From the IMG/VR virus record IMGVR_UViG_3300007346_000024: a stretch of DNA of 64,000 nucleotides. One strand, 5' to 3'. This stretch comes from an uncultured virus (IMG/VR IMGVR_UViG_3300007346_000024) (lineage: Duplodnaviria > Heunggongvirae > Uroviricota > Caudoviricetes). Positions 12,519-61,650 of the stretch are shown here, in pieces. Position 1 is the stretch's first letter; each line of letters opens with the position of its first letter. The notes under the pieces were generated by a model. It was given only the letters and a program-made list of their open reading frames with translations, ran no database searches and had not been told where the DNA came from. Both the position numbers and the translations under genes were made by a program.

Positions 12519-12521
12519 ATT

Positions 12522-12788: not shown

Positions 12789-12829
12789 ATCATTTTCTTG
12801 TTGGTTAATAACTAACCTAAAGATAATGA

Positions 12830-13339
12830 TTATTTCTTTTTAGCGATTAAGGCTATACCTACAATAAGGATTAAAGCACCACCTCCAATAAGACCGTACT
12901 TTAGACCATTGCTCATACCTTCTGAAGCTTCTGAGTCTGTAGAACCTGAGCTTGCTCCTGAACCTGTAGAACCTGAGCTTAAGCTAGCTCTAGACGCAGC
13001 TTCTCTTCTAAGTCTATCTTCTTCAGCTTTAATAGCTGCCTCTTCTTCAGCTCTTAATTGCTCTTCGTATGCCGCAGTTTCTTCATTTAAAATATCTTCC
13101 TGTAATTTTACAGCGTCAGACTTAAAAAGACTCCCCGTTTCAATTCTTTGCTCAAACTTTCTATCACAATCATTTCTACAATCTCTTCTCATTGCAGTCC
13201 TCTTGCTCTTGCTTTTTAGGATTCCTAATCTTTCGCAAGCAAGCTTACAAGTAGCTCTCAAAGCTGTGGCTCCCGCTGCCTCACTGTACTCATCTCCACA
13301 CGAAGGAGAAAAACCTAATTCGTAATCTAAATTGTGCAT
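12830..13339 (-). CDS. C-terminally anchored membrane protein (Cys pairs, coiled coil, GS linker)
   Basis: YSEAAG motif, CxxxC pairs, C-terminal TM plus KKK. Confidence 0.65.
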   Translation of the reverse strand: MHNLDYELGFSPSCGDEYSEAAGATALRATCKLACERLGILKSKSKRTAMRRDCRNDCDRKFEQRIETGSLFKSDAVKLQEDILNEETAAYEEQLRAEEEAAIKAEEDRLRREAASRASLSSGSTGSGASSGSTDSEASEGMSNGLKYGLIGGGALILIVGIALIAKKK

Positions 13340-13346
13340 ATCTTTT

Positions 13347-14177
13347 TTATTTTCTTCTTAACATTAATACTAAGGCAATAGCTCCTAAACCTAAAGCTCC
13401 CCACTTTAAATATTTTGAATTATCTGAATCAGCTTCTTCTGTCATGTAATCATCTTCAATTACCGATGAATCTGTGTACATTCCATCAGGATTAATGCCT
13501 CCTTCAAAAAGGTCTCCCGCTAAAATTTCATCTTCAATAGACATTCCACTAGTACCTAAACCTAAAGTGTCTTCTCCTTCTACAGGGACATCCATTACGG
13601 CTTCTTCTAATACAGTCTCAACAAAATCGCCTTTAGAACCCTTAGAGCTGTCATCAAACTTATTTGAAACCATAGCGTCTAAAACCTGAACTTGGTCTTT
13701 AGACGAACCCGTTTCTAGACGTTTAAGCGTGTCAATTCTATCTAAGTCTCTTCTAGCTTCAGTAGCTCTAGACATAGATAACTTTTTAGACATACTTCCC
13801 TCTCTAACAGCTATGCTATATCTTGTCTCATTCTTACCGAAAGGAAGTTTAATATCTGCAATACCTATTTTAACTCTGTTAATATCTTCAGCCGCAACAT
13901 GTTTTTTATTAAACAACTTTACTGAAACCTTTACTTTTATAGCCAAATAAGGTATTTCAATAATCTTTCCTTTTGAAAGAATCATTGTGTTCTCTGTCTT
14001 CCTAATTATTTTAATAGGTGCTTTTGCTGAAAAAGCCGACTTTACATGATACTCTAAGTAAACGATAGACTTAGCAGGTATTACAATACTCTTTCTACCT
14101 ACTTTAGTATCTAATGTAATCATGTGCTTGTAGTAAGGATTTACATTAGCTTTTCTCTTTGCGATTGCTTTTAACAT
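13347..14177 (-). CDS. C-terminally anchored membrane protein
   Basis: Basic beta-rich N-domain, acidic linker, C-terminal TM plus RRK. Confidence 0.65.
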   Translation of the reverse strand: MLKAIAKRKANVNPYYKHMITLDTKVGRKSIVIPAKSIVYLEYHVKSAFSAKAPIKIIRKTENTMILSKGKIIEIPYLAIKVKVSVKLFNKKHVAAEDINRVKIGIADIKLPFGKNETRYSIAVREGSMSKKLSMSRATEARRDLDRIDTLKRLETGSSKDQVQVLDAMVSNKFDDSSKGSKGDFVETVLEEAVMDVPVEGEDTLGLGTSGMSIEDEILAGDLFEGGINPDGMYTDSSVIEDDYMTEEADSDNSKYLKWGALGLGAIALVLMLRRK

Positions 14178-14181
14178 ATTC

Positions 14182-14766
14182 TTATTTTTTTCTTAGTAGT
14201 AAAACTGTAACAACACCTAAAACAGCTACACCTGCTACAATACCAACAACTAAACCTGTTTTGCTTCCTGAACCCTCGCTTGCTCCCGCTCCCGCTCCTG
14301 AACCTGCACCTGCACCTGCACCTGCACCTGAATCTGAACCTCCTCCAATTAAAACATCTGAAGAAAGACCTTTTTTATCTAATTTAATTTGATTAACACA
14401 AGAAGAATAGCACTGCTTACCTCCTTGACCCCACTTTAGACCTTTATCATCTTTACAGGTTTGTTTACACTCTTTTCTCTGACCTGATACAATTGCAGGG
14501 TATCCGAAAACACTTCTTGTTCCAAATAAATTACTGTAGTTTTCATCGTGAAAAACCTCTTCTGTTAAATCTCTGTCAGAATCTTCGTTCCATCCGTCCA
14601 TATTGCTCATATTTTCTAACGCTTGGGTATCGTTGTAAAAATCTAAAGACCAATCTTCAGTACCCAACTGAACTTGATACTTATTCATCCCTCTTACATA
14701 AGGGCTTTTAATATTTACATTTCTATTAGGTAATCCTAAATGCAATTGTTGTGCGTAACTTTCCAT
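14182..14766 (-). CDS. C-terminally anchored membrane protein
   Basis: MSNMDGW and YSNLFG motifs, CxxxC pairs, (GA)n linker, C-terminal TM. Confidence 0.65.
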   Translation of the reverse strand: MESYAQQLHLGLPNRNVNIKSPYVRGMNKYQVQLGTEDWSLDFYNDTQALENMSNMDGWNEDSDRDLTEEVFHDENYSNLFGTRSVFGYPAIVSGQRKECKQTCKDDKGLKWGQGGKQCYSSCVNQIKLDKKGLSSDVLIGGGSDSGAGAGAGAGSGAGAGASEGSGSKTGLVVGIVAGVAVLGVVTVLLLRKK

Positions 14767-14767
14767 C

Positions 14768-15277
14768 TTAAATATTCTTTAAAGTGATAACGTCCTCTCT
14801 TACATATCCATAGAAATGGTCAGGAGTTATATAATTCATATCAGGCTCGTCTAACTTCACTTTGAACCACTTATACTTGTCCCCGTATTCTTCAGAATCA
14901 ACAACAGCAGTTACAAGACCAACTCTCTTAGTATAATCTTCATATATGTTATTATTGATTGTACCATCATTTATCTTAGCTGAAGAACGAACATTAACAT
15001 CTTTACCTTTTGGATAAGCAAACATTCCTACTTTCTTATCCCCAACTTCCTTAAGAACTTCTTCAACAGCCGTTTCCTGATTTTCTTTTGCTAAAATTTG
15101 AGCTGCAACAGCTTTCTTTTCAGCTTCAGATTTAGCTCCTTTTATAGCTTCAGCAATCCTAGCTTTCGTTTCAGCCTCTCTTTGCTGCTTCTTCTTTTTA
15201 GCGATAGAAGTCCACAAGTAAACGCCTCCCCCTAAAAGAAGTGTTGAAGCTATACCGATTACTAATTTCTTGTTCAT
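14768..15277 (-). CDS. Membrane-anchored bacterial SH3 (SH3b) protein
   Basis: Signal anchor; VNVRSS...YKWFKVK...GYVREDVI. Confidence 0.65.
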   Translation of the reverse strand: MNKKLVIGIASTLLLGGGVYLWTSIAKKKKQQREAETKARIAEAIKGAKSEAEKKAVAAQILAKENQETAVEEVLKEVGDKKVGMFAYPKGKDVNVRSSAKINDGTINNNIYEDYTKRVGLVTAVVDSEEYGDKYKWFKVKLDEPDMNYITPDHFYGYVREDVITLKNI

Positions 15278-15281
15278 ATTA

Positions 15282-15289
15282 CAAATTTA
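15282..15289 (-). promoter_or_regulatory. -7 box TAAATTTG
   Basis: TAnnTTTG immediately upstream of ATG 15277. Confidence 0.5.
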
Positions 15290-15321
15290 TTTAATAAATA
15301 GATAGGTTTTTAAATTGTCAA

Positions 15322-15762
15322 TTATTTAAAAGAAACAGCGTCTTCTCTTACCCAACCTGTGTCAACTCCTTCAATAACTGTCTTAGGCTTAACTTTATAC
15401 CATAAGTAAGAATCAGAACCAATTTTAGCGTCAACAATAGTCCCTATAGGGTTTGAATCTACTTTAGCTAAAACATTACCTGATAAATAACATAAATCAA
15501 AAACACAACGGCTAGTACCATCAATCACAGGAGTTTGTCTAATGTGAGTATATCCTTCTTTAGAAGAAACGTTAACTTCTTTTCCAATTAAATCAGCCGC
15601 TTGAGAAGGCACTTCAACTTCTTTTTGTTCACAGTCCTCTCCTTTGCATTTTGCCTTCTCAGAACCTCCCGTTCCTTTATCTTTTTTCTTAGTAAGCAGT
15701 AAAATTGTAACTCCTGCCAAAACAACGCTTACTGAAGCGATTATAATGTGTGACTTTTTCAT
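15322..15762 (-). CDS. Membrane-anchored SH3b protein (paralogue of 14768..15277)
   Basis: Signal anchor; THIRQTP...YLWYKVK...GWVREDAV. Confidence 0.65.
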   Translation of the reverse strand: MKKSHIIIASVSVVLAGVTILLLTKKKDKGTGGSEKAKCKGEDCEQKEVEVPSQAADLIGKEVNVSSKEGYTHIRQTPVIDGTSRCVFDLCYLSGNVLAKVDSNPIGTIVDAKIGSDSYLWYKVKPKTVIEGVDTGWVREDAVSFK

Positions 15763-15763
15763 A

Positions 15764-16231
15764 TTAATAACCTAATGTTTTAAGTAGTCTTTTCTTTTCG
15801 TTTTTATTAAACTCTTCAATGATAACATCAATTAAGCTTTCCTCATATCTTATCATATATTCTTTACTTACTAAAGACATGTTGTGAGGGTTAGCCGCCT
15901 CTCTAACTGCTCCATAAAGAGCTTCTTCATCAGTACCCACTCCTGAAGCTGCTTTTTCAAAAACATAAGCAATTTGCTTAGCTCTAAAAGGGTCGATTGT
16001 AGTTTTTATAGGGTTGTAAAAATTAGGTTTGAAGTGATTCAATTTAGATAACTTCTCGTTTATCCTAGTATCCTCTTTATCTTCAATTATACCTAGTTTT
16101 TTTAACGTACCTCTCACTAGTAAAAAACCTCCTACAGTTGATACTAAAATCAATCCTCCTATAACATATGGAGTTGCTTTGTTTTTACTTAAACCGTCTA
16201 CCGCTGCTGCTGCTACTAAAGGTGCTGCCAT
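15764..16231 (-). CDS. Membrane protein with annexin-like repeat
   Basis: TM helix then ASGVGTDEEALY...Y..RY..SL...I..EF. Confidence 0.55.
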   Translation of the reverse strand: MAAPLVAAAAVDGLSKNKATPYVIGGLILVSTVGGFLLVRGTLKKLGIIEDKEDTRINEKLSKLNHFKPNFYNPIKTTIDPFRAKQIAYVFEKAASGVGTDEEALYGAVREAANPHNMSLVSKEYMIRYEESLIDVIIEEFNKNEKKRLLKTLGY

Positions 16232-16258
16232 AACTTATTTTTTTTGTTTATTCAAGAC

Positions 16259-17020
16259 CTAATTTACGTTACAAATTCTAGTTTTCAATTCATCGAAATT
16301 ATCAATGAATGCTTTTAAGTATGCATAACGCTCCTTATTTGTTTCAGTAGGAGTATTATGGAAGGTTTCCAAGAAAGCCTTGTGTGCTTCAATTACAGGA
16401 TAACCTAAACTTAAATAAATTGTCAATGCGTTCAAATCGGCTTCTATCTCATCTTTCTGAATTTCATTCATGTAGTAATGACTGAATTCATGACATAGGA
16501 TAGCCATTCTCATTGGAATACTCATTTTAGAGTATTTAGCTTGACTGATTTCCATTCTACCTGTGCTATTTGATATTCTAGCAGGAGTACTAATAACTTT
16601 CCCTTCGTGCTTAATAACAGGAAGGTAGTCAATCGTGTACATCTTATCGTCACTTTGGTATCTACCCGCTGATAAAATACCTGCGTCTTCACTAAATTGC
16701 TTAGCAAACTCGATGAACGATTGAGTTTCTTCACCAATTAAGCAAGGGTTGTACTGTTCTAAATCAACTCTTTCTAAATTAGTAACCTCAAAAGGCTGAC
16801 CTTTATCAGACCAAACCTTAATCAATAACTTCTTAGGACTCTGAGGCAATCTAATCTCAAACTCCTCTTCACCTTGTACAGTACTCCACCTATCTAGATA
16901 CAAAGCACCTTTCTTAAAAGGGTCTATTGCTCTAATATGAATCTTAGTAGGTCTTTCTGTTGATACACCTACTTTAATATTAGATGGCTGTCTATTTGTT
17001 TCTGCAAAAAATTGCTTCAT
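16259..17020 (-). CDS. HExxH zinc metallopeptidase
   Basis: ILCHEFSH followed by EIEADLNA. Confidence 0.7.
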   Translation of the reverse strand: MKQFFAETNRQPSNIKVGVSTERPTKIHIRAIDPFKKGALYLDRWSTVQGEEEFEIRLPQSPKKLLIKVWSDKGQPFEVTNLERVDLEQYNPCLIGEETQSFIEFAKQFSEDAGILSAGRYQSDDKMYTIDYLPVIKHEGKVISTPARISNSTGRMEISQAKYSKMSIPMRMAILCHEFSHYYMNEIQKDEIEADLNALTIYLSLGYPVIEAHKAFLETFHNTPTETNKERYAYLKAFIDNFDELKTRICNVN

Positions 17021-17118
17021 TAGTCTTCTTTTTTAGAGTACTTCTTATAAGCCATTAAAGCTATAAAAACAACCCCTAATACTACAGCTATCTTATCTCC
17101 TTGTTTTAACCCTTTCAT
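17020..17118 (-). CDS. 32-aa membrane peptide (not in ORF track)
   Basis: MKGLKQGDKIAVVLGVVFIALMAYKKYSKKED; TAATG overlap with the peptidase start. Confidence 0.6.
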   Translation of the reverse strand: MKGLKQGDKIAVVLGVVFIALMAYKKYSKKED

Positions 17119-17127
17119 TATAAATGA

Positions 17128-17604
17128 TTAAGAACATCTACGTAATTTATCATTACCCCATTTAGCACACCTGTCAATACCTGCCTTGTCAACGCATGCA
17201 GAACCGTCTCCGTATTCAGTCATTCCATCGGGACAATAACATCTACCTAAGCTAGCATTTCCGTATAAAGCACACCTCCAAGTTGAATTCTTAGTACTAA
17301 CACACGCAGAACCGTCTCCATACTTTTTCATTCCCGAAGGACAATTGGCATAAGACTTACCTTTTAAAGCAGCTATTTCAGCTCTTGCTGCTTCTCTAGA
17401 AGAAGTTTCCTTTAGTCTAGTAGACATTTCAGCTTTTGCTCTAGACATATCTAGTCTAGACTTTTGCATTCTCTTTTCGTCTTCTAAGTCTCCTTGAAGT
17501 TTTTCAGCTAAAGCGTCCTTGTCTTTTTTATCTTTAATAATAAAGTAAGCACCCGCTCCTAAAGCAAGTACTCCTAAACCTATAATTAAAACCTTTTTGT
17601 TCAT
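17128..17604 (-). CDS. Signal-anchored protein with two Cys-rich repeats
   Basis: CP.GM..YGDGSACV...RCA..GN x2. Confidence 0.65.
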   Translation of the reverse strand: MNKKVLIIGLGVLALGAGAYFIIKDKKDKDALAEKLQGDLEDEKRMQKSRLDMSRAKAEMSTRLKETSSREAARAEIAALKGKSYANCPSGMKKYGDGSACVSTKNSTWRCALYGNASLGRCYCPDGMTEYGDGSACVDKAGIDRCAKWGNDKLRRCS

Positions 17605-17605
17605 A

Positions 17606-18019
17606 TTAGAATGAATTTAAGCTTCCATTTGGAGTTGAACCAAAGTCCATTGGATTTCCTGAGAAAGACATTTTAGAAGGATTGCCTTCAAACTCACTTT
17701 CTTTACCATTAAAACCTACAAACATTGATTGAGCTACTTTTCCTGCTGAACGTCTATTTCTTCTAGCTGCTCCTTGCTCAGCGTTCATAGCTGCAAATTG
17801 AGCTGCTTGCTCTTCAGTTTTAGCCTCTTTAACACCTTCTTTAACGCCTTTCTTAATCTCAGACGCAATATCAGTTGCTTGATTTTGAGCTTCGTGTTGG
17901 TTTTTATAACCCCACTTACCCATCATTCTTTGTGCGATAAGGAAACCTACCCCGATAGAGAAGCCTGCAACAACGCCTCCAATTACTCCTTGCACTATTT
18001 TTTGACCATTTTCTCCCAT
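17606..18019 (-). CDS. Membrane protein
   Basis: N-terminal Gly-rich TM helix. Confidence 0.6.
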   Translation of the reverse strand: MGENGQKIVQGVIGGVVAGFSIGVGFLIAQRMMGKWGYKNQHEAQNQATDIASEIKKGVKEGVKEAKTEEQAAQFAAMNAEQGAARRNRRSAGKVAQSMFVGFNGKESEFEGNPSKMSFSGNPMDFGSTPNGSLNSF

Positions 18020-18030
18020 TTCAATAAGTT

Positions 18031-18207
18031 TTACTTAGTGAATAACTTGTAAATTCCATAACCTGCAAATCCTAATAAAGCGAATTGCACTAATGGATTA
18101 CCTAGATGACTTCTTTCAAATTCTAAAGACTTGTTGATTAATTTATCAACAGGCTCAATTCCCGTTTCTTCAGGAAGACCTTTGAAGTTGTTCCAATCGT
18201 TTTGCAT
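18031..18207 (-). CDS. 58-aa C-terminally anchored membrane protein (not in ORF track)
   Basis: MQNDWNNFKG...VQFALLGFAGYGIYKLFTK fills the gap. Confidence 0.6.
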   Translation of the reverse strand: MQNDWNNFKGLPEETGIEPVDKLINKSLEFERSHLGNPLVQFALLGFAGYGIYKLFTK

Positions 18208-18243
18208 AATATCTATTTTTTAAAATATAAATTAATTACTTGT

Positions 18244-18744
18244 TTATTTCTTTGTTGCGAAGTATATACCTACTCCAATACCGATTAAAGCTAAAGCTCC
18301 AACAGCAACAAAAAGACCTGTTTTTGAAGAACCTTCATCACTACCTCCTGAATAAGAGTCATCAGAATAAGATTCTTGCTCATTAGAACCTCCTGAACCA
18401 ATTTTACCTAAAAAGTTCCCTAAGAAACCTAAAGCAATCTGCCCCATATCGCCCATGCTCTTACTTCTTTTCTTAAAGTCTTCAAAGCTACCTTGATAGC
18501 CTTTACCTAAAGCTTTAGCATATTTTTTAGCAACAGCATCACAAGCTCCATCAGCTCCACATTGGTTAGCAGCATTCATACATTTACCATAAACACTATC
18601 ACCTAAAGAACCGCAAAGGTCTTCAGCTTGCATAGCCGTCATGTTCTCGAAAGAATCTTCTTTCCAAACAGACTTGATAATCTCATCATTAGCAAGAGCT
18701 ACTTCTCCTATCATTGCTGAGTTATATAAAGTATTAGAATCCAT
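18244..18744 (-). CDS. C-terminally anchored membrane protein
   Basis: Cys cluster, amphipathic helix, C-terminal TM plus KK. Confidence 0.65.
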   Translation of the reverse strand: MDSNTLYNSAMIGEVALANDEIIKSVWKEDSFENMTAMQAEDLCGSLGDSVYGKCMNAANQCGADGACDAVAKKYAKALGKGYQGSFEDFKKRSKSMGDMGQIALGFLGNFLGKIGSGGSNEQESYSDDSYSGGSDEGSSKTGLFVAVGALALIGIGVGIYFATKK

Positions 18745-18745
18745 A

Positions 18746-19027
18746 TTATTTTCTATTTTTAATAATTACAATAACACCAATTAAGGCTGCCACCGATATA
18801 CCTATCAAAGATAAGGTTAAAATCCTTTTGTTTTGAGAATTAGTTTCAGACATACTATGACCTCCTGTAGTCTCTTCTGAATAAACAATCTCTTCTTCTA
18901 AAGCTTCTTCTTCTCTAGCTTCTCTTTCAGCAGCTAACTTTGCCTCTACAGCCGCCTTAGCAGCTTCTTTAGCTTCTTTAAATTTTTTAGCACTCATATA
19001 TGAGTAAGCTTCCATTTGATGATGCAT
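18746..19027 (-). CDS. C-terminally anchored membrane protein
   Basis: Ala/Glu helix, C-terminal TM. Confidence 0.6.
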   Translation of the reverse strand: MHHQMEAYSYMSAKKFKEAKEAAKAAVEAKLAAEREAREEEALEEEIVYSEETTGGHSMSETNSQNKRILTLSLIGISVAALIGVIVIIKNRK

Positions 19028-19053
19028 TTTAATTCGTTTTATGATTAATAAAT

Positions 19054-19437
19054 CTAACCTCTTCTTTTTCTAGCAATAACTAAAGCAACTATACCTCCTA
19101 CAAGTACTAGACCTCCCGTAGCAATCATAGCTACTTTTACTTTAGAGGCTGCCGCTGCTTCCGATGCTGCTTTGCTTGCTTCCGCTTCTGCGGCTGCTCT
19201 TTCAGCTTCAGCTTCAGCTTGTTTACTCCTTTGCTTTCCTCCAACTAAGCTACCTAAAACCCCGATTATTGCCGCTCCTGTTCCAACAGCTTTTTTTCCA
19301 TCAATACCTTTACCTACTTCAGCTACTTTACCTGAAGCTGAACCTACAGAGCTACCTATTTTTGAAAATAAATCTCCTAAGTTAAAGTTTGAATACTCTT
19401 CTTTAGATAAATCGTGATATAAACAATTGTAATCCAT
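19054..19437 (-). CDS. Membrane protein (2 hydrophobic segments)
   Basis: EEYSNFNLG motif, Gly-rich helices, C-terminal TM. Confidence 0.6.
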   Translation of the reverse strand: MDYNCLYHDLSKEEYSNFNLGDLFSKIGSSVGSASGKVAEVGKGIDGKKAVGTGAAIIGVLGSLVGGKQRSKQAEAEAERAAAEAEASKAASEAAAASKVKVAMIATGGLVLVGGIVALVIARKRRG

Positions 19438-19439
19438 GA

Positions 19440-19901
19440 CTATTTCTTTTTATAGTTATAATAAATCAATAAACCAACTCCAAGAACAGCTAAACCTCCA
19501 ATTAAGTAATGCTTGCCTTTTATTTTCTTGTCGTCTGTTTTTGACTCGATAATCTCCTCTTCTTCTGACAAAGGTTCTACGTCTGACTCTCCTGTTTCAG
19601 GGTCATATTCTCCTGTAGCTAAACCTCCGATTAAGTTAATTCCCTTATCAAGCCATTCGCTATTTCTAATATTGTTAATCCAATCTTTAAAAGCAGACTT
19701 CTCTCCCTGAACAGGCTCTCCGTCTTGATTGTAATAACCATCTACACCTAACCAACCATTTTCTAATGATTTCTTATATGCTTGGTTAGGTGATATAATT
19801 CCAATTTCAGCTCTATTAGCAAGGTCAACAAATCTCTCTACTTGTTGTTTTTTATAACCCTTACTCAATAAGTAACCGTAAAACTCTGTAGCTGCACCCA
19901 T
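19440..19901 (-). CDS. C-terminally anchored membrane protein
   Basis: YYNQDG motif, C-terminal TM plus KKK. Confidence 0.6.
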   Translation of the reverse strand: MGAATEFYGYLLSKGYKKQQVERFVDLANRAEIGIISPNQAYKKSLENGWLGVDGYYNQDGEPVQGEKSAFKDWINNIRNSEWLDKGINLIGGLATGEYDPETGESDVEPLSEEEEIIESKTDDKKIKGKHYLIGGLAVLGVGLLIYYNYKKK

Positions 19902-20776
19902 TATTTAATTGGCTTAACAATTGCAAAAACAAGACCTGACGCTGCCAACACTAAAGGAAGGATGTACTTACTGTCTTTTTTTAGACCTAAATGCATTGCC
20001 GCTCCTGAACTTGCTCCCGCTCCTGACTCAGCACCTCCTTGACCACTATTAATCATGTCGGCTGTAGGCTCAATAAAAGAACCTCCTCCGTAACCACCTC
20101 CTCCTGAGATGATTGTATCAAGTTCTCCTGTAGTACCCGCATCTTCAATATCTCCATCAGTAATTACAACGTTAATATCCGTATCTACAACAGGAGTAAC
20201 AGGAACGCATGCTTTATCAGCATTGCTACATTTTGTTCCTTGAGGGCATCTTGCAGTTGCACAAAATGGTATTTCAGGCTCAGGTGTTCCACCACTACCT
20301 TTAATAGGGTCTCCGTATCCTACGATTGGAGGTTTTGGAGCAAAAACAGGTGTACCCTCGCCATTACCAACAGGGTCTCCTAGCTCTACAACAGGCGGTT
20401 TACTTATTGCAATAGTAGGAGTTTCTGTTCCTCTAACAGGGTCTCCTAATTTTACTATTGGTTTTTTTGGAAGTGTAGCCAACTTCTCTTTAATTTCTTG
20501 CTGACGCTTATTCGTTTTAGCAATCTCATTTTTTAAACGAGCTTCAGCTTCAGCTATTTCCTTTTTTTCAACAAGGTTAGTAGATGAATTAGCCTTTGCT
20601 TTAAGGTTTGAAATCGCTTTCTGAAAATTAATTTTAGAAGAAGCAGCTCTTTGAAAATCTCTATTAAGATTATCCCTAGCTATATCATAATTAGAAACTT
20701 CTTTTCTATCTTGAAGAATCGCTGTAGCGTTACTGAAATCCTCTTGTAATACTAAGTACTGTAAAGTTGGGTGCAT
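19901..20776 (-). CDS. C-terminally anchored protein with coiled coil, Pro-rich repeats and Cys-rich module
   Basis: KP..V..GDP..G..TP x3; CATARCPQGTKC...C; C-terminal TM. Confidence 0.65.
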   Translation of the reverse strand: MHPTLQYLVLQEDFSNATAILQDRKEVSNYDIARDNLNRDFQRAASSKINFQKAISNLKAKANSSTNLVEKKEIAEAEARLKNEIAKTNKRQQEIKEKLATLPKKPIVKLGDPVRGTETPTIAISKPPVVELGDPVGNGEGTPVFAPKPPIVGYGDPIKGSGGTPEPEIPFCATARCPQGTKCSNADKACVPVTPVVDTDINVVITDGDIEDAGTTGELDTIISGGGGYGGGSFIEPTADMINSGQGGAESGAGASSGAAMHLGLKKDSKYILPLVLAASGLVFAIVKPIK

Positions 20777-20779
20777 ATT

Positions 20780-21190
20780 CTATTTTTTTAGAGATTTGTA
20801 AATTAAGTAAATTCCTGTACCCGCAGCAATCAAACCACCTACAGGATAAATCCAATCAAACGAAGAAGCTTCATTTGTTGGTTCTTTTTTTTCAACTTTA
20901 TCCTTAGATTCAGTTGGTTCTATTTGAATATTAGACTCAGCATTTTCCTGACTATTATCAATAGCAGGGTTTTTTAGCTTTATATTTCTAACTTTTCCTA
21001 AATCCTCTTTATCTATATTAAGAATCTGATTAAGGCTAATACCGTAATTGTTTTTTAGCACAGCTTCATTAGTTGAGTAAAAATCAACTAATGGAGCAGG
21101 GCTTCCCTGAAGAACAGCATCAAGATAAGCTAAAGATAACTTAGACTTAAGTTGTGCTGAAAGTTTAGATATTCCTTTTTTGTTCTCCAT
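20780..21190 (-). CDS. C-terminally anchored membrane protein
   Basis: C-terminal TM plus KK. Confidence 0.6.
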   Translation of the reverse strand: MENKKGISKLSAQLKSKLSLAYLDAVLQGSPAPLVDFYSTNEAVLKNNYGISLNQILNIDKEDLGKVRNIKLKNPAIDNSQENAESNIQIEPTESKDKVEKKEPTNEASSFDWIYPVGGLIAAGTGIYLIYKSLKK

Positions 21191-21693
21191 TACTTTAAAA
21201 ACTTATAGATTATAACTATACCTAAAACACCTAATATGATTTCTTTACCCGTAAAGTCACCATACTTCTTATCTAGGAAAGATTCTGCCTTTTCAGTAGT
21301 AGCGTCAAGAGTTTCTTCAATAACCTCTTCACCTTTTTCGATAACTCTTTCAAGCTTTTGCTCTAACTCTTTAATCTTTTCACTTTTCTTTATTTCAGAA
21401 TCAGTAGTAGACTCTAAATTCTGAAACGGCATAATATAAGCACCATTATCGTCTTGAATAACTATAACAGGTCTAGAAGCACCATTTTTAGTTTTAACTT
21501 CTATTGCCGCAATACCTTCAATAATAGAATCTTTTAAGAAAGTCTTTTTAGTTCCAACTAATTCTTTTCTTCTTGAATCTAAATCAAGTTCTTTTGTTTC
21601 TTTAACAATAAACTTCTTGTAAACAGGATTTCCTTGAACGTGAAGTTGCGTCCCTAAAGAAGTTGTGAATGTCCTACCTTTCTTAGTTCTCAT
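21190..21693 (-). CDS. C-terminally anchored membrane protein
   Basis: Small beta domain, coiled coil, C-terminal TM. Confidence 0.6.
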   Translation of the reverse strand: MRTKKGRTFTTSLGTQLHVQGNPVYKKFIVKETKELDLDSRRKELVGTKKTFLKDSIIEGIAAIEVKTKNGASRPVIVIQDDNGAYIMPFQNLESTTDSEIKKSEKIKELEQKLERVIEKGEEVIEETLDATTEKAESFLDKKYGDFTGKEIILGVLGIVIIYKFLK

Positions 21694-22186
21694 TCTTTTG
21701 AAATTTTGTTTTAATATAACCTCCTAACATAGCACCACCAAAAGCACCGATAGAAGCAAATAATAATTTATTTTGTCGTTTCATCATTGCGTAAATTAAT
21801 CCGACAACAGCCCCTCCCATTCCGAAGTAAACTGCTTTTTTTGTTTTTAAAGTTTCCTTAGCTATCATTTCTGAAGCTACTATGTTTTTGTAGGCATCCT
21901 TAAAAACCTTAGAGTTGTCTTTAACTCCTTCTTTTTCATCTTCGATAATTTCAGCATCATCGAATCCTGAATCTTCAACCCATCCTAAAGCGTGGATAAA
22001 AGGTTCAGGTATAATGAATCCATTTTTTGTTTCTAAGGCTAGTATTTTATTACCATCAGGTAGCGTAACTTCTTTTACAGTACCCGTTACTTTAGTACCC
22101 TTAGTTATTGGCATAGACTCAGGGTTTCCTGAAGTCATCTTTTGTGCCATGCAATTCTGTGTAAGTACCGCTTCTACTAATCTCAT
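21683..22186 (-). CDS. Membrane protein with C-terminal hydrophobic hairpin (likely start ATG 22186)
   Basis: MRLVEAV start is TAATG-coupled to the upstream stop; two Gly-rich helices. Confidence 0.6.
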   Translation of the reverse strand: MRLVEAVLTQNCMAQKMTSGNPESMPITKGTKVTGTVKEVTLPDGNKILALETKNGFIIPEPFIHALGWVEDSGFDDAEIIEDEKEGVKDNSKVFKDAYKNIVASEMIAKETLKTKKAVYFGMGGAVVGLIYAMMKRQNKLLFASIGAFGGAMLGGYIKTKFQKNEN

Positions 22187-22776
22187 TACTTTCTTAAAAG
22201 AGTGAAATATGCTACTATACCACCTGTTAATAAAACACCCGAAACTATCGCAATCGGAATCCATTTCTTTTTAGAACCTTCGTCTTCAGGCTCTTCTTGC
22301 TCAGAAAAAACCTCATTATAGACTTCAATTCTGTCATTCTCTTTCTGAATCTTTTTCGCTTTACCTGAAGACAACCACTGAAAAGTAGTGTCTACAGCTC
22401 CGATAGCAGCACCAATAATAGCACCAACAATAGGGACAGGAATTGAAGCCTGACCTCCTAATGTTGCTTTAACCATTGTCTCTCCACTATCTTTTAAAAG
22501 CTTACCTTTTGATTTAGCACTTGCATTATGCCAAATCTCAGGTTTAATCTTCTTTACATTATCTAAAACCTTTAAGTCATTATAACCTATTAGTAAGCTA
22601 ATGTTTTTTTGAAAAGCTCTATTGTCATAAATATTATCAACAACGACATCTATTAATTCAGCTCTACTAAGACCTTCAGCTTTAACCCCTGAAGCCTCTA
22701 AAGCGTCAATAACAAAATCAGGTCTTTGCTTGATTAATTTTGCTATCTTTTTCAATATGTCGTTTCTAGAGTACAC
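22186..22776 (-). CDS. Membrane protein, paralogue of 22785..23363
   Basis: Shared I...P..V..AL..SG...LID...IY.N..F N-domain and WIP....GVLL.GG C-terminal TM. Confidence 0.65.
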   Translation of the reverse strand: MYSRNDILKKIAKLIKQRPDFVIDALEASGVKAEGLSRAELIDVVVDNIYDNRAFQKNISLLIGYNDLKVLDNVKKIKPEIWHNASAKSKGKLLKDSGETMVKATLGGQASIPVPIVGAIIGAAIGAVDTTFQWLSSGKAKKIQKENDRIEVYNEVFSEQEEPEDEGSKKKWIPIAIVSGVLLTGGIVAYFTLLRK

Positions 22777-22784
22777 TTAAATAA

Positions 22785-23363
22785 TTACGCTTTTTTACCA
22801 CCGATAACTTTCCAAGCTATAAGACCTCCTATTAAAAGAACGCCTCCAATAGCTACAACAGGAATCCAATTAGTCTTTTTACCACTATCACCTTCATCGC
22901 CTAAAATCTTACCGTAAAGAGTAGCTTTACTAGCTTGCTCGCTAGCTTTTAACTCATTATTAGATGACGCGAAAGTAAAAACAGAACCAATCATGCTAGC
23001 GATTGATGAAACAACCTCTGTTCCACTACCGCCTTGAGAACTTCCTTCAACAGCACCCTCAACACTTGAGTACTCAGGTCTAGCAGGTTTTCTTAAAATC
23101 TCTTGACTCTTAATAGCTTTTGCTAACTCTAAGTGAAATGACTTATTGTTGTAAATAGACTTAATAGTCTTATCTATAAGAACTTTAGGTGTTGGTTCGT
23201 CCCCTATAGTTTCTCCTGAATCCCTTAAAGCTTTTACAAGAACATAAGGGTTTTCTTCTATAATCGTAGAAAGCTCATCAAGAATCATATCCTTAAAGAG
23301 CTTGTCATCCTTAGCTTTAGCAGCGTTGGATAAATTCGATACTACATTAGAGTGATACCTCAT
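22785..23363 (-). CDS. Membrane protein, paralogue of 22186..22776
   Basis: As above; YSSVEG motif. Confidence 0.65.
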   Translation of the reverse strand: MRYHSNVVSNLSNAAKAKDDKLFKDMILDELSTIIEENPYVLVKALRDSGETIGDEPTPKVLIDKTIKSIYNNKSFHLELAKAIKSQEILRKPARPEYSSVEGAVEGSSQGGSGTEVVSSIASMIGSVFTFASSNNELKASEQASKATLYGKILGDEGDSGKKTNWIPVVAIGGVLLIGGLIAWKVIGGKKA

Positions 23364-23364
23364 A

Positions 23365-23811
23365 TTAATTTCTTGTTACAAGAGCTAAACCAATTAAGGC
23401 TACTGCTCCGATAATCATTAACTCTGTTCTGTCAGATTTCTCAGTTTTTTGAGAAGCTGAAGCAACTGAATCAATCTCTTGTTTCCTTTTAATGTCCTCA
23501 ACGACTTTCTTTACTTCTGAAGCCTCTGCTCCATCAGCACTTGAATAATCGTTCTTACCACAAGTACAAGGCTTGTCTTCTTTTTTCTCTTCTACCTTTG
23601 GAGCATTAACTTCATGATAGTCAGAGATAAGTTTCAAATCAGGATGAACTGAAGTGATTCTATATAAAGCTTCCTTCCCATGCTTATTAACCTTTTCCGC
23701 TAATTGCTTAGCTAGAATATCAGGCTGTCTAATAGCTTTTTCCCCGTAGCTATTAATTACTCTCTTAGCTCCTTCAGGGTTTTTGTAAGCTACATACTGA
23801 TATAAATTCAT
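23365..23811 (-). CDS. C-terminally anchored membrane protein
   Basis: NP.GA..VI..YG N-domain, YSSADG motif, C-terminal TM. Confidence 0.65.
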   Translation of the reverse strand: MNLYQYVAYKNPEGAKRVINSYGEKAIRQPDILAKQLAEKVNKHGKEALYRITSVHPDLKLISDYHEVNAPKVEEKKEDKPCTCGKNDYSSADGAEASEVKKVVEDIKRKQEIDSVASASQKTEKSDRTELMIIGAVALIGLALVTRN

Positions 23812-23834
23812 TTGATTATCCCTTTTAATTACTT

Positions 23835-23870
23835 AAAAAAAAAGGCGGCAACTTATGTTGCTGCCTTTTT
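23835..23870 (-). terminator. Intrinsic terminator after the putative major capsid gene
   Basis: GGCAGCAAC-ATAA-GTTGCCGCC stem followed by T9 on the minus strand. Confidence 0.8.
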
Positions 23871-23899
23871 CTATATATGCCGAGTCTAATTTCTTAGAA

Positions 23900-24580
23900 T
23901 TATCCTACTAATGGCTTCCTGTTAGGGAATTGGAACTGAGATAAGTTTGGCTTAGAGTAAGCTTTACCTACGCTTCTTCCTGATAAACCTCTAGAAACAT
24001 CTAACTGCTCCATTGGGTATAATCTAACAGTAAGTGTAGCAGATGCTAAAACTGTAGTTACAACTTTAGTAAATGCGTTTACAGGGAATTTGTGACGAAC
24101 GATAGTCACACCTGACTGCTGCTGCATTGGGTCTAACGCAGGAGAAACAGGTAAAGTAACTTGTCTTCCGTTTGGCTCTCTGTAAGTAATTACTAACTGC
24201 TTGAACGGCTGTGAAGTGTTCGCAGACTGTAAGTACATTAAACCTACTTTGAAAGGCTCTGACTTAATAGACTCTAAGAACTCAGTGTAAGTTACGTCTC
24301 CATTATCCATTGTGATAGTGATAGCCGCAGGGTTACCGAAGTTAGTAGCTCCAAATAAGTTAGAGTTAGCTCCTAAAAATACTACATCTGATACATCATC
24401 AGTAGTTGAGTTAGCGATGTTAATGATGAAAGGCAAAGATGCTTTAGCTTCTGCACCTGCTCCTGCACCTGCATAGTCATAATCATCTGCGTAATCATAA
24501 GCATCAACGTTGTCCCAACCATCGTAGTTTGAATACTCCTCGTTTGCGAAGTTCATTGCGTCTGAAAAATAGTTTTCCAT
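23900..24580 (-). CDS. Putative major capsid protein, single jelly-roll type
   Basis: Acidic/aromatic leader then ~150-aa beta-strand-rich domain; own terminator; paralogous to 27031..29316; near packaging ATPase. Confidence 0.6.
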   Translation of the reverse strand: MENYFSDAMNFANEEYSNYDGWDNVDAYDYADDYDYAGAGAGAEAKASLPFIINIANSTTDDVSDVVFLGANSNLFGATNFGNPAAITITMDNGDVTYTEFLESIKSEPFKVGLMYLQSANTSQPFKQLVITYREPNGRQVTLPVSPALDPMQQQSGVTIVRHKFPVNAFTKVVTTVLASATLTVRLYPMEQLDVSRGLSGRSVGKAYSKPNLSQFQFPNRKPLVG

Positions 24581-29378: not shown

Positions 29379-30245
29379 TTAGTTCCCGTAGTACTTTTCA
29401 GTGTACTCCTTAATTAAAGTTTTAGCCAAAGCTTTGTGGTCTTTATGAATAGGTTCTCCTGTAAACAGGTCTTTCTTATTCATCATTGGCTTTACAACTT
29501 TATTATAGTTATCCTCAAGGTACTTATAGATAGCGTGTTGGAATTGTTTCTTAGAGAACTTTCCTTGAATCTTACCTGTGTCTTTGTTTAAGTAAGCGTA
29601 AAACCTTTTGTTACCTTCATGATACTCAAGGTCAACCATTTTCTCAAGAATCTTTAAATGCTCTAAAGTTCCTGCGAATTTGTTTTTATGCCTCTCTACA
29701 GAATCATCACACTTATGATAACGAATCCAATTTGCATTACCCCAAATCTTAGGGTGTGCGGCTTTACCAATTGTTTGGAAATGAGTTATAACATCTACAG
29801 AAGCATGTCTCTGAGTAACGATAGAACCAATTAAATCATTAGGCATTGAATCCGAAACGAATCTGTTAATATCTTCAATTAACAATAATCCATTATGATA
29901 GTGTTCCAATATGTAGCTCAATGCTTCAGAAAGTTCTTTTAAATTCATCTTTCCTCCACCTTCCTTAAGAATGCTAACTCGTCTAGCTTCAACTAAACTA
30001 GAGTCAGCAAACTTTTTAACATCTTCTAACCTTAAACCTTTTACGTTTATAAAATTAGGATTTTGGTCTTCTTGGACGTTACCAAACTCGTTATTAACAT
30101 CTAGTATTAATACCTTTCTAGGTTTAGCTCCTGTAATAGGATTTCCTTTCAAATAAGGTTGTAGCATCTCTAGAGTAGCGTATGTCTTACCTACTCCTTT
30201 TCTACCTACCGCTATTCCTAATAAAGGCTCTCTAAGATTTCCCAT
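29379..30245 (-). CDS. FtsK/HerA-superfamily (A32/P9-like) genome packaging ATPase
   Basis: Walker A GRKGVGKT near N-terminus, Walker B LLLIED, QRH arginine finger, HFQ motif; 288 aa with no nuclease domain. Confidence 0.75.
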   Translation of the reverse strand: MGNLREPLLGIAVGRKGVGKTYATLEMLQPYLKGNPITGAKPRKVLILDVNNEFGNVQEDQNPNFINVKGLRLEDVKKFADSSLVEARRVSILKEGGGKMNLKELSEALSYILEHYHNGLLLIEDINRFVSDSMPNDLIGSIVTQRHASVDVITHFQTIGKAAHPKIWGNANWIRYHKCDDSVERHKNKFAGTLEHLKILEKMVDLEYHEGNKRFYAYLNKDTGKIQGKFSKKQFQHAIYKYLEDNYNKVVKPMMNKKDLFTGEPIHKDHKALAKTLIKEYTEKYYGN

Positions 30246-35642: not shown

Positions 35643-36113
35643 CTAATATCTCAAATCAATTCCGTAACCGTTACAACATTCAGGGCATATATCATTACAA
35701 CTTGTGTCTATAATTTCACCTCCAAATTCAAAACAACCTTGCCTCCTAATGTACCTAGCCTGAAGACCTTCTTTTTTATCACTGTAGTAAGAGCTTTTAG
35801 TTATTTTGTCAATATGCTTTCTCAGGTCTCCCGTTTCAGACATAGCTTGTTTTACAAACTCATTAAGCGAATAATCTGAAATTGGGCTAAAAATAGAGTT
35901 AGATATCAACCTAACATCTTCCTTACTAACTCCTGATGCCTCTGATATTTTAACAATATGAGGCGTGTCTTCAGTTACAGCTCCTTTAGGTGCAGCAAAT
36001 TGCTTCATGTAATCAGCAACATAATCTAGTTTCTGTTCATAATCAAGCCCTTCAGTCTCTTCGGCTAATTTTTTAAGTCTTGATTTTATCCAACCTGCTC
36101 TAGGTGCTTTCAT
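35643..36113 (-). CDS. Hypothetical protein with FEFGG motif
   Basis: 156-aa ORF in operon. Confidence 0.6.
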   Translation of the reverse strand: MKAPRAGWIKSRLKKLAEETEGLDYEQKLDYVADYMKQFAAPKGAVTEDTPHIVKISEASGVSKEDVRLISNSIFSPISDYSLNEFVKQAMSETGDLRKHIDKITKSSYYSDKKEGLQARYIRRQGCFEFGGEIIDTSCNDICPECCNGYGIDLRY

Positions 36114-36114
36114 A

Positions 36115-37014
36115 TTACCAATTTAAGAAAGATAATTTCCCTGTAAAATATCCTTTATACTTTATCGAACCTCCTTTTGATTTTTTATCAATTCTATATA
36201 TAGCAGATATTTCTTCGTACTCCTCAATGTTTTCAGATAAGCTATATTCTCTAGGCTCTCCTCCCCAAGACTCAACTTCTAAAACCTTATCTCCATCAAG
36301 ATATATAGCGTAATGTCTTGGATTATCATCACTACCAAACTGCAAAACATCTCCGCTTTTTAAGCTATCAACTCCTTTATATGGTAGTTTATTAAACTCT
36401 TTAAAAGACCTGTCGTTATGTATCTTATTGCAGAACAATTCGCAATTCATGAAACCACCTTCGCTAACAACTTTTTTATAACGTTCAATTACTGAATCTA
36501 TCTCCCCACCTTTAGCGTACATAGAAACACCTGTAGAGTCTTCTACTCTTATCTCAGCATTAGGAAACTCTCTTTTCATTTCTCTGTAATAAGCAGGTAT
36601 CAATCTATAGTCTTGAATACTAATTTCTTGTTTTAATACTTTTCCTTTTTTAGTATCAACGGCTATAACTGAAAAAGGAGAAGCGTAATCCTCTATAGAC
36701 TTCATTATACCTCTTAAAGAACCTCCTTTAGCTAGCTCTGTCCCTTCGTAAGAAACAACAAGTAAACCGTCTTCATCATCTCCAACTTCCCAAACAGGCT
36801 CTCCTGACTTATCTTCTACTTCCAAGTACCAAACATCTTCTTTAGGATGCATAGCCTGAGCTGATTTAAAAATATCTTCAGCACTTTCATATTCTCCATT
36901 TAAAGAAAGGTCTCCAAGATATTTAGAATCTGAAGATATAATCGTAGCTCTATGTGCTTTAGATGCGTCAAAAGGGATTCCTATATAATTTGTTTTCATA
37001 ATGTTTTTTACCAA
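36115..37014 (-). CDS. GG-linked modular cargo protein with NlpC/P60-like module and LSFLNW tag
   Basis: LAKGG/YAKGG/KSKGG linkers; NCELFC...GDVLQFG...HYAIYLDGDKVLE; ends YFTGKLSFLNW. Confidence 0.65.
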   Translation of the reverse strand: MVKNIMKTNYIGIPFDASKAHRATIISSDSKYLGDLSLNGEYESAEDIFKSAQAMHPKEDVWYLEVEDKSGEPVWEVGDDEDGLLVVSYEGTELAKGGSLRGIMKSIEDYASPFSVIAVDTKKGKVLKQEISIQDYRLIPAYYREMKREFPNAEIRVEDSTGVSMYAKGGEIDSVIERYKKVVSEGGFMNCELFCNKIHNDRSFKEFNKLPYKGVDSLKSGDVLQFGSDDNPRHYAIYLDGDKVLEVESWGGEPREYSLSENIEEYEEISAIYRIDKKSKGGSIKYKGYFTGKLSFLNW

Positions 37015-38267
37015 TTTAAAAATGAAAGCTCTCCATTAAAATAAGAAGAACATGACAATAACCCCCCGTTTTTAAACCTAATTTTAAGACCTGAGTAGTC
37101 CTGAATATCTCTGTGTATGTACTGATAATCACCATCAGAAACAGCCTTAAACTTTTTATATATCTTAGGGACTTGTCTTTTGTTAGACCTGTCAGGAGTA
37201 TAAGAAACTAAACCTTTGTATTTAGGGTTTATATGATTCAAAGCTGCTAAATACATCATTGAGCCTAAACCTTTATTTCTATGACTTCTATTTATATCAA
37301 TAATAGATATTTTCATAAAATCATTAGAAGGACTTAATTCTAAGTAACCAACTTTTTCAGGGTTTCCCTTACCTAAATACCAAAGAGTTATATATGAAGG
37401 ATTGTCCTTGTTGTCAATAGCAATTTCATAAGGTTTGTAGTTGTGATAACCGCTATAGACTATATACCTACCTCCTCTGTCTATTACGCCTCCTTCTTGG
37501 AACAATATAGGCTTTATAAATTCTCTTTTTTTAGAATCTCTTAAAGACCTAATTTCATCTCTTTCTTCTCTAGTCGATGTTGAGTTGGAAGGGATTCTGT
37601 ATTTAGACTCTATTTCTGACAACTTATTAGATTTGCTTTCAGCAGATTCGTAAATTTCTTTAATATCTTCTAAAGAGAGGTTTTTAAATTTCTCTTTTCC
37701 AAATACATTGAATGAAAAAGGTTTTTTGTAAGTGTATAGAACTCTTGGGTTTAAAACGACAATTTCCTGTTCTGAAAAATCAGAACTCCAATCACCTATT
37801 TTAACAGCATCAACACCTTTGTCCCATAAGTCTTCGATAAAATCTTCTAACTCATTTGCGTCCGAAACATCAGGCATGTTTATAACTTTAGCTCCTTTTT
37901 TTACTAAAACTAAATAAACAGAACCGCTTCTCGAATCAGAAGTAAAATTTGAAGCAATATTTTTGCTTTTAGACAAAGACACACCCCAATACTTTTCTCC
38001 GTAGCCTCCTCCTCCGAGTCTCTCTATATCTCTATCAGACACTAATATGCTTGGTTTCAAAGCTGAACCAACATAAGAGCCTGTTCCGTGATAATATATA
38101 TGGTCAGCAAAGTCTTTATAGTTGTCATACTCCAATATATGTTTGTATATTCCGTACTCGCCATAACCACCTCTCCCTGATGACTTTAAAGCTCTTTTTA
38201 TTTTGTCTTTAGTCCAACCGTTTCTTGGTTTAGGATATATTGACCTGTGCTTATTGAGCAATGTCAT
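37008..38267 (-). CDS. ADP-ribosyltransferase plus GNAT acetyltransferase cargo protein with LSFLNW tag
   Basis: YYHGT...GVSLS...EQEIVVLNP (ART); FQEGG linker; IDINRSHRNKGLGSMMY (GNAT motif A); FKNGG; ends YFNGELSFLNW. Confidence 0.7.
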   Translation of the reverse strand: MTLLNKHRSIYPKPRNGWTKDKIKRALKSSGRGGYGEYGIYKHILEYDNYKDFADHIYYHGTGSYVGSALKPSILVSDRDIERLGGGGYGEKYWGVSLSKSKNIASNFTSDSRSGSVYLVLVKKGAKVINMPDVSDANELEDFIEDLWDKGVDAVKIGDWSSDFSEQEIVVLNPRVLYTYKKPFSFNVFGKEKFKNLSLEDIKEIYESAESKSNKLSEIESKYRIPSNSTSTREERDEIRSLRDSKKREFIKPILFQEGGVIDRGGRYIVYSGYHNYKPYEIAIDNKDNPSYITLWYLGKGNPEKVGYLELSPSNDFMKISIIDINRSHRNKGLGSMMYLAALNHINPKYKGLVSYTPDRSNKRQVPKIYKKFKAVSDGDYQYIHRDIQDYSGLKIRFKNGGLLSCSSYFNGELSFLNW

Positions 38268-38270
38268 TTT

Positions 38271-40487: not shown

Positions 40488-40503
40488 TTTATTTTATTTC
40501 TAA

Positions 40504-61350: not shown

Positions 61351-61650
61351 TTAAAGACCTACAGATAAAGTGTCAGAGTCCCAACCATCAGCACTAGCCA
61401 TTTCTGACTTAGCAACAACTTCTTCAACAGTCTTAACATCATAAGCCGTGTCTCCTAATTCTTCAGCCATTGCTTCACCTTCAAGAGTCTCTTCCTCAGA
61501 AACACCTTCAGTTACAGCAGCTAAATCTGAACCTGAAACAACACCTTTGATTGCTTCTACCTTCTCTTCGTTTGCTTCTTTCTTTGTTAGGTGGTCATAA
61601 AGCAAATAAGCACCAACTCCGACAAGAGCAACTTTTAATACATTTTTCAT
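61351..61650 (-). CDS. Signal-anchored acidic membrane protein
   Basis: N-terminal TM; MASADGWD motif near C-terminus. Confidence 0.6.
   Translation of the reverse strand: MKNVLKVALVGVGAYLLYDHLTKKEANEEKVEAIKGVVSGSDLAAVTEGVSEEETLEGEAMAEELGDTAYDVKTVEEVVAKSEMASADGWDSDTLSVGL

Follow-up and report, generated by a model that had tools for sequence, protein, structure and literature searches.

In a 64,000-nucleotide stretch of DNA from an uncultured virus (IMG/VR record IMGVR_UViG_3300007346_000024; hereafter the window), a hexapeptide motif is repeated in the leader of the putative major capsid protein and recurs in small membrane proteins encoded next to it. Enrichment, position and conservation in orthologues support the view that the capsid leader and the membrane proteins associated with the shell share a peptide signal under selection. 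In our estimate there is an even chance that this hexamer serves as a docking tag, which would recruit membrane proteins to a single jelly-roll capsomer in competition with the capsid protein's own leader. An earlier note on the window had proposed a maturation-cleavage or capsid-docking signal for these components; the signal has held up, with docking as the more probable of the two mechanisms.

The window comes from a larger viral contig, with about 30 kb of the genome lying outside it. The longest contig encoding the same capsid protein has 93,865 bases and the related IMG/VR records measure 55-84 kb. Genome comparisons refer to the window and ten IMG/VR records (G001-G010), 11 genomes in all, eight of which were recruited through the peptidase encoded by gene 16259 (genes are named here by their first coordinate).

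The motif in the leader of the capsid protein

The gene and its repeats are the following:
23900..24580, minus strand: putative major capsid protein, 226 amino acids (aa), with a helix (residues 3-13), the motif leader (14-46), a single jelly-roll core (47-191) and a C-terminal arm
24464..24535, minus strand: segment of the capsid leader (residues 16-39) with four motif copies in tandem at a period of 6, scoring 9.1-12.3 bits

The consensus worded in the earlier note, aromatic-S-N-x-x-G, proved of little use, with two matches in the 86 open reading frames (ORFs) of the window against 0.7 in shuffles; its loose form, [FYWM]x[NS]xxG, showed 24 matches where 21.8 were expected and is not enriched. 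Because the literal consensus was not enriched in the window, a profile was learned by expectation maximization (EM) on capsid leaders only, 216 of which were reduced to 109 below 55% identity, the leader of 23900 being part of this training set. The resulting consensus is aromatic-x-[N/S/Y/G]-[A/F]-[D/N]-G. In detail, the columns contain F/Y/D/W, a variable residue, N/S/Y/G, A/F (A 0.60, F 0.22), D/N and G/D/A. The EM log-likelihood was 609 against 85-98 in three shuffled sets, a gap somewhat overstated by the 15 starts of the shuffles versus 40. The shared motif is real and selected, but its wording had to be changed, as position 4 is small or hydrophobic and position 5 usually D or N. The hexamers quoted in the earlier note are present in all 12 ORFs, all on the minus strand. 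The acidic residues that it saw ahead of the motif are found as a tendency (D/E in 44-45%, two residues ahead of the aromatic).

Within the leader, G21 is invariant in 53 homologues and S17, N18, Y34 and A37 are kept in at least 90%. The 109 leaders carry no copy in five cases, one in five, two in 19, three in 40, four in 26, five in 12 and six in two; thus, 99 of them have 2-6 copies, most commonly spaced by 6-7 residues. The copies are not alike. The first is strict for the aromatic residue (F+Y 0.81), D occupies position 6 in 28% of the middle ones, and a median of 9 residues separates the end of the last from the jelly-roll core.

The structural model suggests that 23900 is the major capsid protein. 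Its best structural matches are jelly rolls with Z 5.6-6.5, below the caution line of Z 8. They include chain 6q5u_O of PR772 (Z 6.2, root-mean-square deviation 3.0, 94 residues aligned), the phiCjT23 capsid (Z 5.6) and the FLiP major capsid protein (Z 5.6). Foldseek gave no match to the model in the PDB at E <= 0.001 and weak matches only in BFVD, and the matches in the ESM Atlas were below 0.8. Confidence is low in the leader (predicted local distance difference test, pLDDT, < 50 at residues 14-46) and in the C-terminal arm. Homologues numbered 116 in one search and 516 at the 50% cluster level, and they are present in 11/11 genomes. The capsid proteins of the lineage diverge to about 25-30% identity, and the genomes each have one leader-bearing capsid gene together with shorter or split jelly-roll paralogues.

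Enrichment of the motif in membrane-anchored proteins

The genes from 11782 to 24580 lie on the minus strand and encode mostly small proteins with one N- or C-terminal hydrophobic segment. The enrichment of structural over other genes, which the earlier note had put forward as a check, is seen in the window itself: a profile match of at least 9 bits occurs in six of the 21 noncapsid ORFs of 12830-24580 (1.1 expected), versus 4/64 elsewhere (4.7 expected). Throughout, anchors were called by a simple hydropathy rule, with some proteins misclassed.

At the same threshold, the 11 genomes show matches in 42/126 tail-anchored proteins (5.6 expected), 10/126 N-anchored proteins (4.6) and 64/833 soluble ones (50.3). 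Tail-anchored proteins encoded within 12.5 kb downstream of the capsid gene match in 40 cases out of 87 (4.8 expected), and those encoded elsewhere in 2/39 (0.9 expected). When the columns of the profile were permuted 150 times, the mean was 7.4 matches and the maximum 27, reached once, against the 42/126 obtained with the true order. With local shuffles at 11 bits, 13/68 tail-anchored families match versus 2.0 (maximum 5 in 20 shuffles).

A larger set was drawn from all loci, with an upper limit of 400 aa. It comprised 1874 representatives; once those below 60 aa and capsid-like ones were dropped, 1697 remained and were scored at 10 bits. Tail-anchored proteins matched in 118/439 cases (9.7 expected), corresponding to 30/133 families (7.4 expected). 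For N-anchored proteins the respective values were 25/300 (3.8 expected) and 14/154 families (3.7 expected), and for proteins anchored at both ends 1/45 (0.5 expected).

Searches independent of the capsid leaders were less informative. Pattern enumeration on the tail-anchored set ranked aromatic-x-N-x-x-G first and aromatic-x-x-A-x-G third (16/57 families, about 5 expected), at p about 1e-4, which does not withstand correction for multiple testing. When EM was run de novo with the tail-anchored proteins by themselves, it converged on Pro-rich and Ala-rich low-complexity stretches.

Conservation of the individual sites

A site was counted as kept in an orthologue when a site of at least 7 bits occurred within 10 residues, and the count was compared with expectation. 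The proteins concerned are:
23365..23811, minus strand: universal tail-anchored protein next after the capsid gene (11/11 genomes), with a conserved N-domain, a variable linker with the motif (23530-23547) and a C-terminal membrane helix
22785..23363, minus strand: tail-anchored protein; motif 23055-23072, kept in 14/30 orthologues (2.4 expected)
22186..22776, minus strand: tail-anchored paralogue of 22785; motif 22516-22533, 11.5 bits, kept in 1/3 orthologues
19901..20776, minus strand: tail-anchored Pro-rich protein; motif at residue 14 (20720-20737), 10.2 bits, kept in 1/1 orthologue
19440..19901, minus strand: tail-anchored protein; two adjacent copies in an internal linker (19719-19754), 11.2 and 5.4 bits, kept in 11/18 orthologues (2.2 expected)
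19054..19437, minus strand: tail-anchored protein; doubtful Gly-less site (19378-19395), 3.7 bits, no orthologues in hand
18244..18744, minus strand: tail-anchored protein; Gly-less variant site (18634-18651), kept at 7 bits in 1/19 orthologues (1.0 expected)
18031..18207, minus strand: 58-aa hydrophobic protein with leaders of variable length in its family; motif at residue 5 (18178-18195), kept in 5/8 orthologues (0.1 expected)
17606..18019, minus strand: N-anchored protein, absent from the list of the earlier note; motif in the C-terminal part (17705-17722), kept in 8/13 orthologues (0.8 expected)
14182..14766, minus strand: tail-anchored protein; copies at 14593-14610 (kept in 3/5 orthologues, 0.6 expected) and 14521-14538 (3/5, 0.5 expected)
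12830..13339, minus strand: tail-anchored protein; motif at residue 18 (13271-13288), 8.2 bits, kept in 2/2 orthologues (0.2 expected)
61351..61650, minus strand: N-anchored protein outside the structural cluster; motif 61384-61401, 10 residues from the C-terminus, 11.2 bits, no orthologues in hand

Conservation in homologues, another check put forward, applies to the leader columns and to most membrane-protein sites, which are kept in orthologues above chance. The clearest case is 23365, whose site is retained in 40/45 orthologues (1.3 expected), with A in 36 and G in 43 of the 45. In this family the motif alone is well conserved within an otherwise variable linker, reaching at least 9 bits in 38/46 proteins (0.5 expected). 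Its distance varies between 10 and 50 residues to the folded domain and between 8 and 41 to the anchor. Each of the four possible codons occurs for the Ala and for the Gly of the motif; the constraint therefore acts on the peptide. A Cys-x-Cys pair occurs near the motif in 22 of the 46 linkers, and in some of them Cys replaces the aromatic residue in a tandem copy. Between motif and anchor, the paralogues 22785 and 22186 (22186-23363, minus strand) show by eye a Gly/Ala-rich hydrophobic segment, which we take to recall DNA-pilot or membrane-inserting helices.

At 18244, about two thirds of the orthologues examined by eye retain aromatic/Met-x-N-hydrophobic without the final Gly. Tandem expansion with a period of 6-7 is found in several families; for instance, an orthologue of 14182 at locus L005 has three tandem copies. 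Locus L026 (15483-16275) has three tandem 18031-type paralogues, with unrelated leaders ahead of the motif.

The position of the motif is not restricted to one end of the protein. In several tail-anchored proteins it is found at residues 3-12. Several N-anchored ones have it 6-14 residues ahead of the C-terminus, and in soluble jelly-roll paralogues of G001 and G002 it is also near the C-terminus. The suggestion that it separates a leader from the rest of the protein is not general, since it also stands near the C-terminus of N-anchored proteins.

Proposed docking on the capsid and its alternatives

According to the docking reading, the hexamer would be read by the capsid lattice, most simply via a pocket on the membrane-facing base of the capsomer. 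The leader copies, about three per capsid protein, would fill this pocket and either hold free capsomers before assembly or link neighbours. Proteins anchored at either end would expose the hexamer on the soluble side and displace the leader or share its site, and tagged membrane proteins would thereby be sorted into the particle and link shell and inner membrane. Subsequent trimming by a zincin-type peptidase would be possible and not required. The inner membrane of the virion, the membrane topology, the receptor and the competition are what we infer in this scheme.

Docking on the capsid is favored because the tag is used at either end of a protein, may lack the final Gly and is multiplied in tandem. 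A profile trained on capsid leaders alone also picks out unrelated anchored proteins, chiefly those of the capsid operon, and precedents are seen in vaccinia A17/D13 and in the membrane-proximal proteins of HCIV-1. A single cut position makes no functional sense for tags at both protein ends, the tandem copies of period 6-7 resemble avidity tags, and the conserved Gly-less variants (18244 and the middle leader copies) fit a strict P1 residue badly.

Several observations weigh against this reading. The last leader copy is the strictest (A 0.93, G 0.76), as expected of a maturation site, and the leader (residues 14-46) is of low confidence in the monomer model. In the 18031 family, conservation begins directly after the motif and the orthologue L040 has neither leader nor motif. 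Under half of the tail-anchored proteins of the operon reach the threshold (the 40/87 above), and in the larger set unanchored proteins are also in small excess (28/913, 15.9 expected). Lastly, a zincin with invariant catalytic residues is encoded in the same operon in 11/11 genomes, eight of which were found through it, and the A-x-G core of the motif parallels the A-X-E sites of phage SPN3US and recurs in the GG motif of the cargo proteins. The enzyme in question is:
16259..17020, minus strand: zincin-type peptidase with an N-terminal jelly-roll-like beta-sandwich (1-87) and a HExxH...E catalytic domain; model pLDDT 88

Residues H177, E178, H181 and E191 are invariant in 31 homologues. The segment 100-244 matches BepA with Z 6.7, and M60 peptidases are among the weak Foldseek matches. 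The N-domain has its best structural match, of GOLD/CBM type, at Z 8.2, and it may serve to attach the enzyme to the shell or to hold the substrate. The family is the only peptidase recognized among the universally conserved families, and none of its members carries the shell or the GG motif (0/31 homologues).

The strongest alternative, less probable in our judgement yet a serious candidate, is maturation cleavage. The 16259 zincin would recognize A-x-G in the leader and the membrane proteins and cut behind it or close to it. The leader would thus be lost in small pieces and soluble domains released from their anchors, and the GG motif would represent this specificity in the cargo. The invariant HExxH...E in every genome examined speaks for it, as do the strict A-x-G of the last leader copy and of the 23365 orthologues and the hybrid A-x-GG sites of 15/109 leaders. 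Precedents are the A-X-E code of SPN3US with its multiply cut propeptides, as described in the accessible part of PMC10052503, and the role of zincins as processors of polyvalent phage proteins, proposed in the part of PMC5512222 available. Against it, a cut at the copies that lie 3-12 residues from an N-terminus or 6-14 from a C-terminus would free meaningless stubs, Gly-less sites are conserved, the peptidase is without a site of its own, unlike gp245 of SPN3US, and the shell and GG motifs keep to membrane proteins and cargo, respectively. A conserved motif in flexible linkers is expected of docking and of cleavage alike, and the two may act in sequence. Co-folding of three capsid cores with the peptidase, zinc and the 23365 linker peptide (score 0.04, mark 0.32, controls not folded) is evidence neither way.

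It is rather unlikely that the tag docks on another receptor, such as the N-domains of 23365, 22785 and 22186, the LEA_2 protein 11782, the acidic protein 30268, the ATPase 29379 or a jelly-roll exosite of the peptidase. These candidates are widespread (11782, 16259, 23365 and 29379 in 11/11 genomes, 30268 in 10), the peptidase has a noncatalytic beta-sandwich domain, and each capsid subunit has three copies, more than a single pocket on it could take up. However, nothing positive was found for any one candidate, and only the capsid protein would be expected to be abundant enough for so many ligand families.

Chemical modification or self-cleavage, that is, an Asn/Asp-Gly succinimide, Asn cyclization or N-glycosylation, is very improbable. 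Asn cyclization occurs in nodavirus maturation, D or N ahead of G is common, three sites of the window contain N-x-S/T and glycosyltransferase-like genes are seen by eye in these genomes. However, only 35% of the leader sites have N at position 3, against 47% with S, Y or G, and the N-x-S/T sequon is absent from most sites. Asn self-cleavage and N-glycosylation were discarded as general explanations on the composition of position 3.

Chance or composition is the least credible explanation: literal and loose expressions are not enriched in the window, de novo pattern counts alone fail multiple testing and one of the 150 permuted profiles reached 27 matches, but the 42/126 of the true column order, the 13/68 families and the 38/46 proteins of the 23365 family refute it for the motif class, though individual sites, for instance 19054, may be due to chance. 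An origin of the motif in repeated DNA was also rejected, as none of the 20 largest repeat families lies under the sites and synonymous codons vary.

Relation to the GG motif of the cargo proteins

The comparison set for the cargo is:
35643..41907, minus strand: GG cargo genes with [FMY]-A-[KDNE]-G-G in ten copies in 38271, three in 40504 and two in 37008; no shell-motif match of at least 9 bits

The full form of the cargo motif is [FMY]-A-[KDNE]-G-G-[EK]-[IVT]. As the earlier note had observed, the shell motif is absent from the GG/LSFLNW proteins of the window, where the best scores are 8.6, 7.4, 8.4, 2.9 and -0.5. The GG motif has 370 matches in soluble proteins against 106.7 expected and is not enriched in tail-anchored ones (15 versus 13.2 expected), and in GG/polyprotein cargo the shell profile matches no more families than chance would give (5/16, 6.1 expected). 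Since neither is enriched in the other's set, the two motifs sit on different proteins. However, both contain A-x-G and both form tandems of period 6 (17 such spacings in 20 polyproteins). Hybrid [FMYLN]A-x-GG sites occur in 15/109 capsid leaders (1.9 in shuffles), and the strict cargo pattern in 4/109 (0.4 expected). The orthogonality of the two codes claimed in the note is therefore limited to their distribution and does not extend to their sequence.

The cargo polyproteins of G004, G005, G006 and G010 carry up to 24 GG motifs each, mostly 40-100 residues apart. The LSFLNW ending was observed only in close kin of the window. At 58431-60257 (minus strand), an ART-PolyVal ADP-ribosyltransferase domain (E 3.5e-20) is followed by one GG motif.

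A more speculative proposal, which we consider less likely than not, is a two-address code built from one A-x-G core. Aromatic-x-N-A-D-G would be a competitive switch that starts the shell only on a tagged membrane, aromatic-A-K-G-G would address cargo polyproteins, and the jelly-roll-fused zincin would erase one or both at maturation. If true, this would be a poxvirus-like assembly logic, generalized to a transferable tag, in a bacteriophage.

The virus and its other genes

The jelly-roll capsid model, a P-loop ATPase and an endolysin point to a tailless, probably membrane-containing bacterial virus; the bacterial host is suggested because an endolysin is encoded. With the peptidase as a query, no relative was found among genome contigs. 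A tblastn search of the capsid protein, ATPase and peptidase against 50,697 phage records returned zero matches, and the capsid and membrane proteins have no Pfam or PHROG family assigned. Two of the 12 related records, G003 (84.4 kb) and G004 (68.8 kb), are classed as having inverted terminal repeats; the ends of the present genome are not in view.

The ATPase is placed as follows:
29379..30245, minus strand: P-loop ATPase, putative packaging ATPase, with weak Pfam AAA_22 and DUF87 matches below the cut-off; 11/11 genomes

The membrane-protein cluster is closed by an N-anchored protein with a LEA_2 domain (11782-12267, minus strand; 11/11 genomes). A 761-aa protein (27031-29316, minus strand), whose N- and C-terminal parts resemble the capsid core and flank a long insertion, is a penton or spike candidate; G001 and G002 encode shorter relatives of it, which terminate in the shell motif. 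Two conserved genes of the opposite strand (25002-26609, plus) lie upstream of the capsid gene, one of them glycosyltransferase-like by eye. An AAA ATPase (weak Pfam match), a HExxH protein and a VWA-like protein are encoded consecutively at 53451-58242 (minus strand) and appear MoxR-VWA-like by eye.

Comparison with known systems

Knowledge of membrane-protein selection and of shell-to-membrane coupling in membrane-containing jelly-roll viruses comes from a small number of individual protein pairs. In the present lineage, a single six-residue tag is shared by dozens of unrelated families and by the capsid protein itself. The motif provides a rule, read from sequence, by which virion proteins can be recognized in a virus group without annotation. 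It might also serve as a portable tag to load proteins onto capsids, and it allows a direct test with one peptide, one capsid protein and one peptidase. No description of the virus group or the motif was found in the literature searched, most subscription papers being outside its reach, and the group is not shown in the accessible part of PMC5894146.

In vaccinia virus, the aromatic N-terminal tail of A17 takes the place of the N-terminus of D13 in one and the same cavity at the base and triggers assembly of the lattice, according to the available text of PMC13672803. Similarly, a short aromatic peptide is carried here on the soluble tail of membrane proteins (anchors called by the crude hydropathy rule), and the N-terminus of the shell protein has the same motif; the sequence identity is observed and the competition would follow by analogy. 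On the other hand, D13 is a double jelly-roll trimer of a eukaryotic virus, whereas 23900 has 226 aa and one barrel (47-191), and a single ligand contrasts with 30 tail-anchored and 14 N-anchored families sharing the motif (about 11 expected by chance). The likeness would be functional and does not imply homology.

In the sphaerolipovirus HCIV-1, membrane-proximal proteins position single-barrel capsomers (PMC6414509, in the part available). With GPS-II and GPS-III of HCIV-1/HHIV-2, as far as that part of the source describes them, the present system would share a vertical single-barrel capsid on a membrane with tail-anchored helical proteins; the linear genomes with inverted terminal repeats of sphaerolipoviruses have a counterpart in the two relatives so classed here. 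In the same part of that source, HCIV-1/HHIV-2 have two capsid protein types, where the present genomes have one leader-bearing gene and further jelly-roll paralogues, and they have genomes of about 30 kb and folded GPS domains, with no shared linear motif seen. Unlike a Sphaerolipoviridae-type virus, the lineage has no sequence relationship to described isolates among the 50,697 phage records.

Adenoviruses, poxviruses (I7) and African swine fever virus mature through cysteine proteases, which cut at short Gly-containing sites in structural precursors and polyproteins. No CE-clan cysteine protease (adenain/I7/pS273R-type) was detected among the 33 of the 86 window ORFs scanned with Pfam, and the candidate here is a metallopeptidase.

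The prohead protease of T4/phiKZ-like phages is a serine protease. Like the T4/phiKZ/SPN3US code, the motif has a small residue at P3, repeats in the N-terminal propeptide of the capsid protein and one code on many head proteins. In SPN3US, A-X-E sites recur within the propeptides and the gp245 protease carries its own site, as given in the accessible part of PMC10052503. Those are tailed phages with an HK97 fold and not with the jelly-roll beta-sandwich predicted here, and in the present lineage Gly takes the place of the Glu of SPN3US, the targets are membrane-anchored and the zincin is without a self site (0/31). Overall, the system works like A17/D13 docking or like a prohead-protease code, yet it fails the defining features of both.

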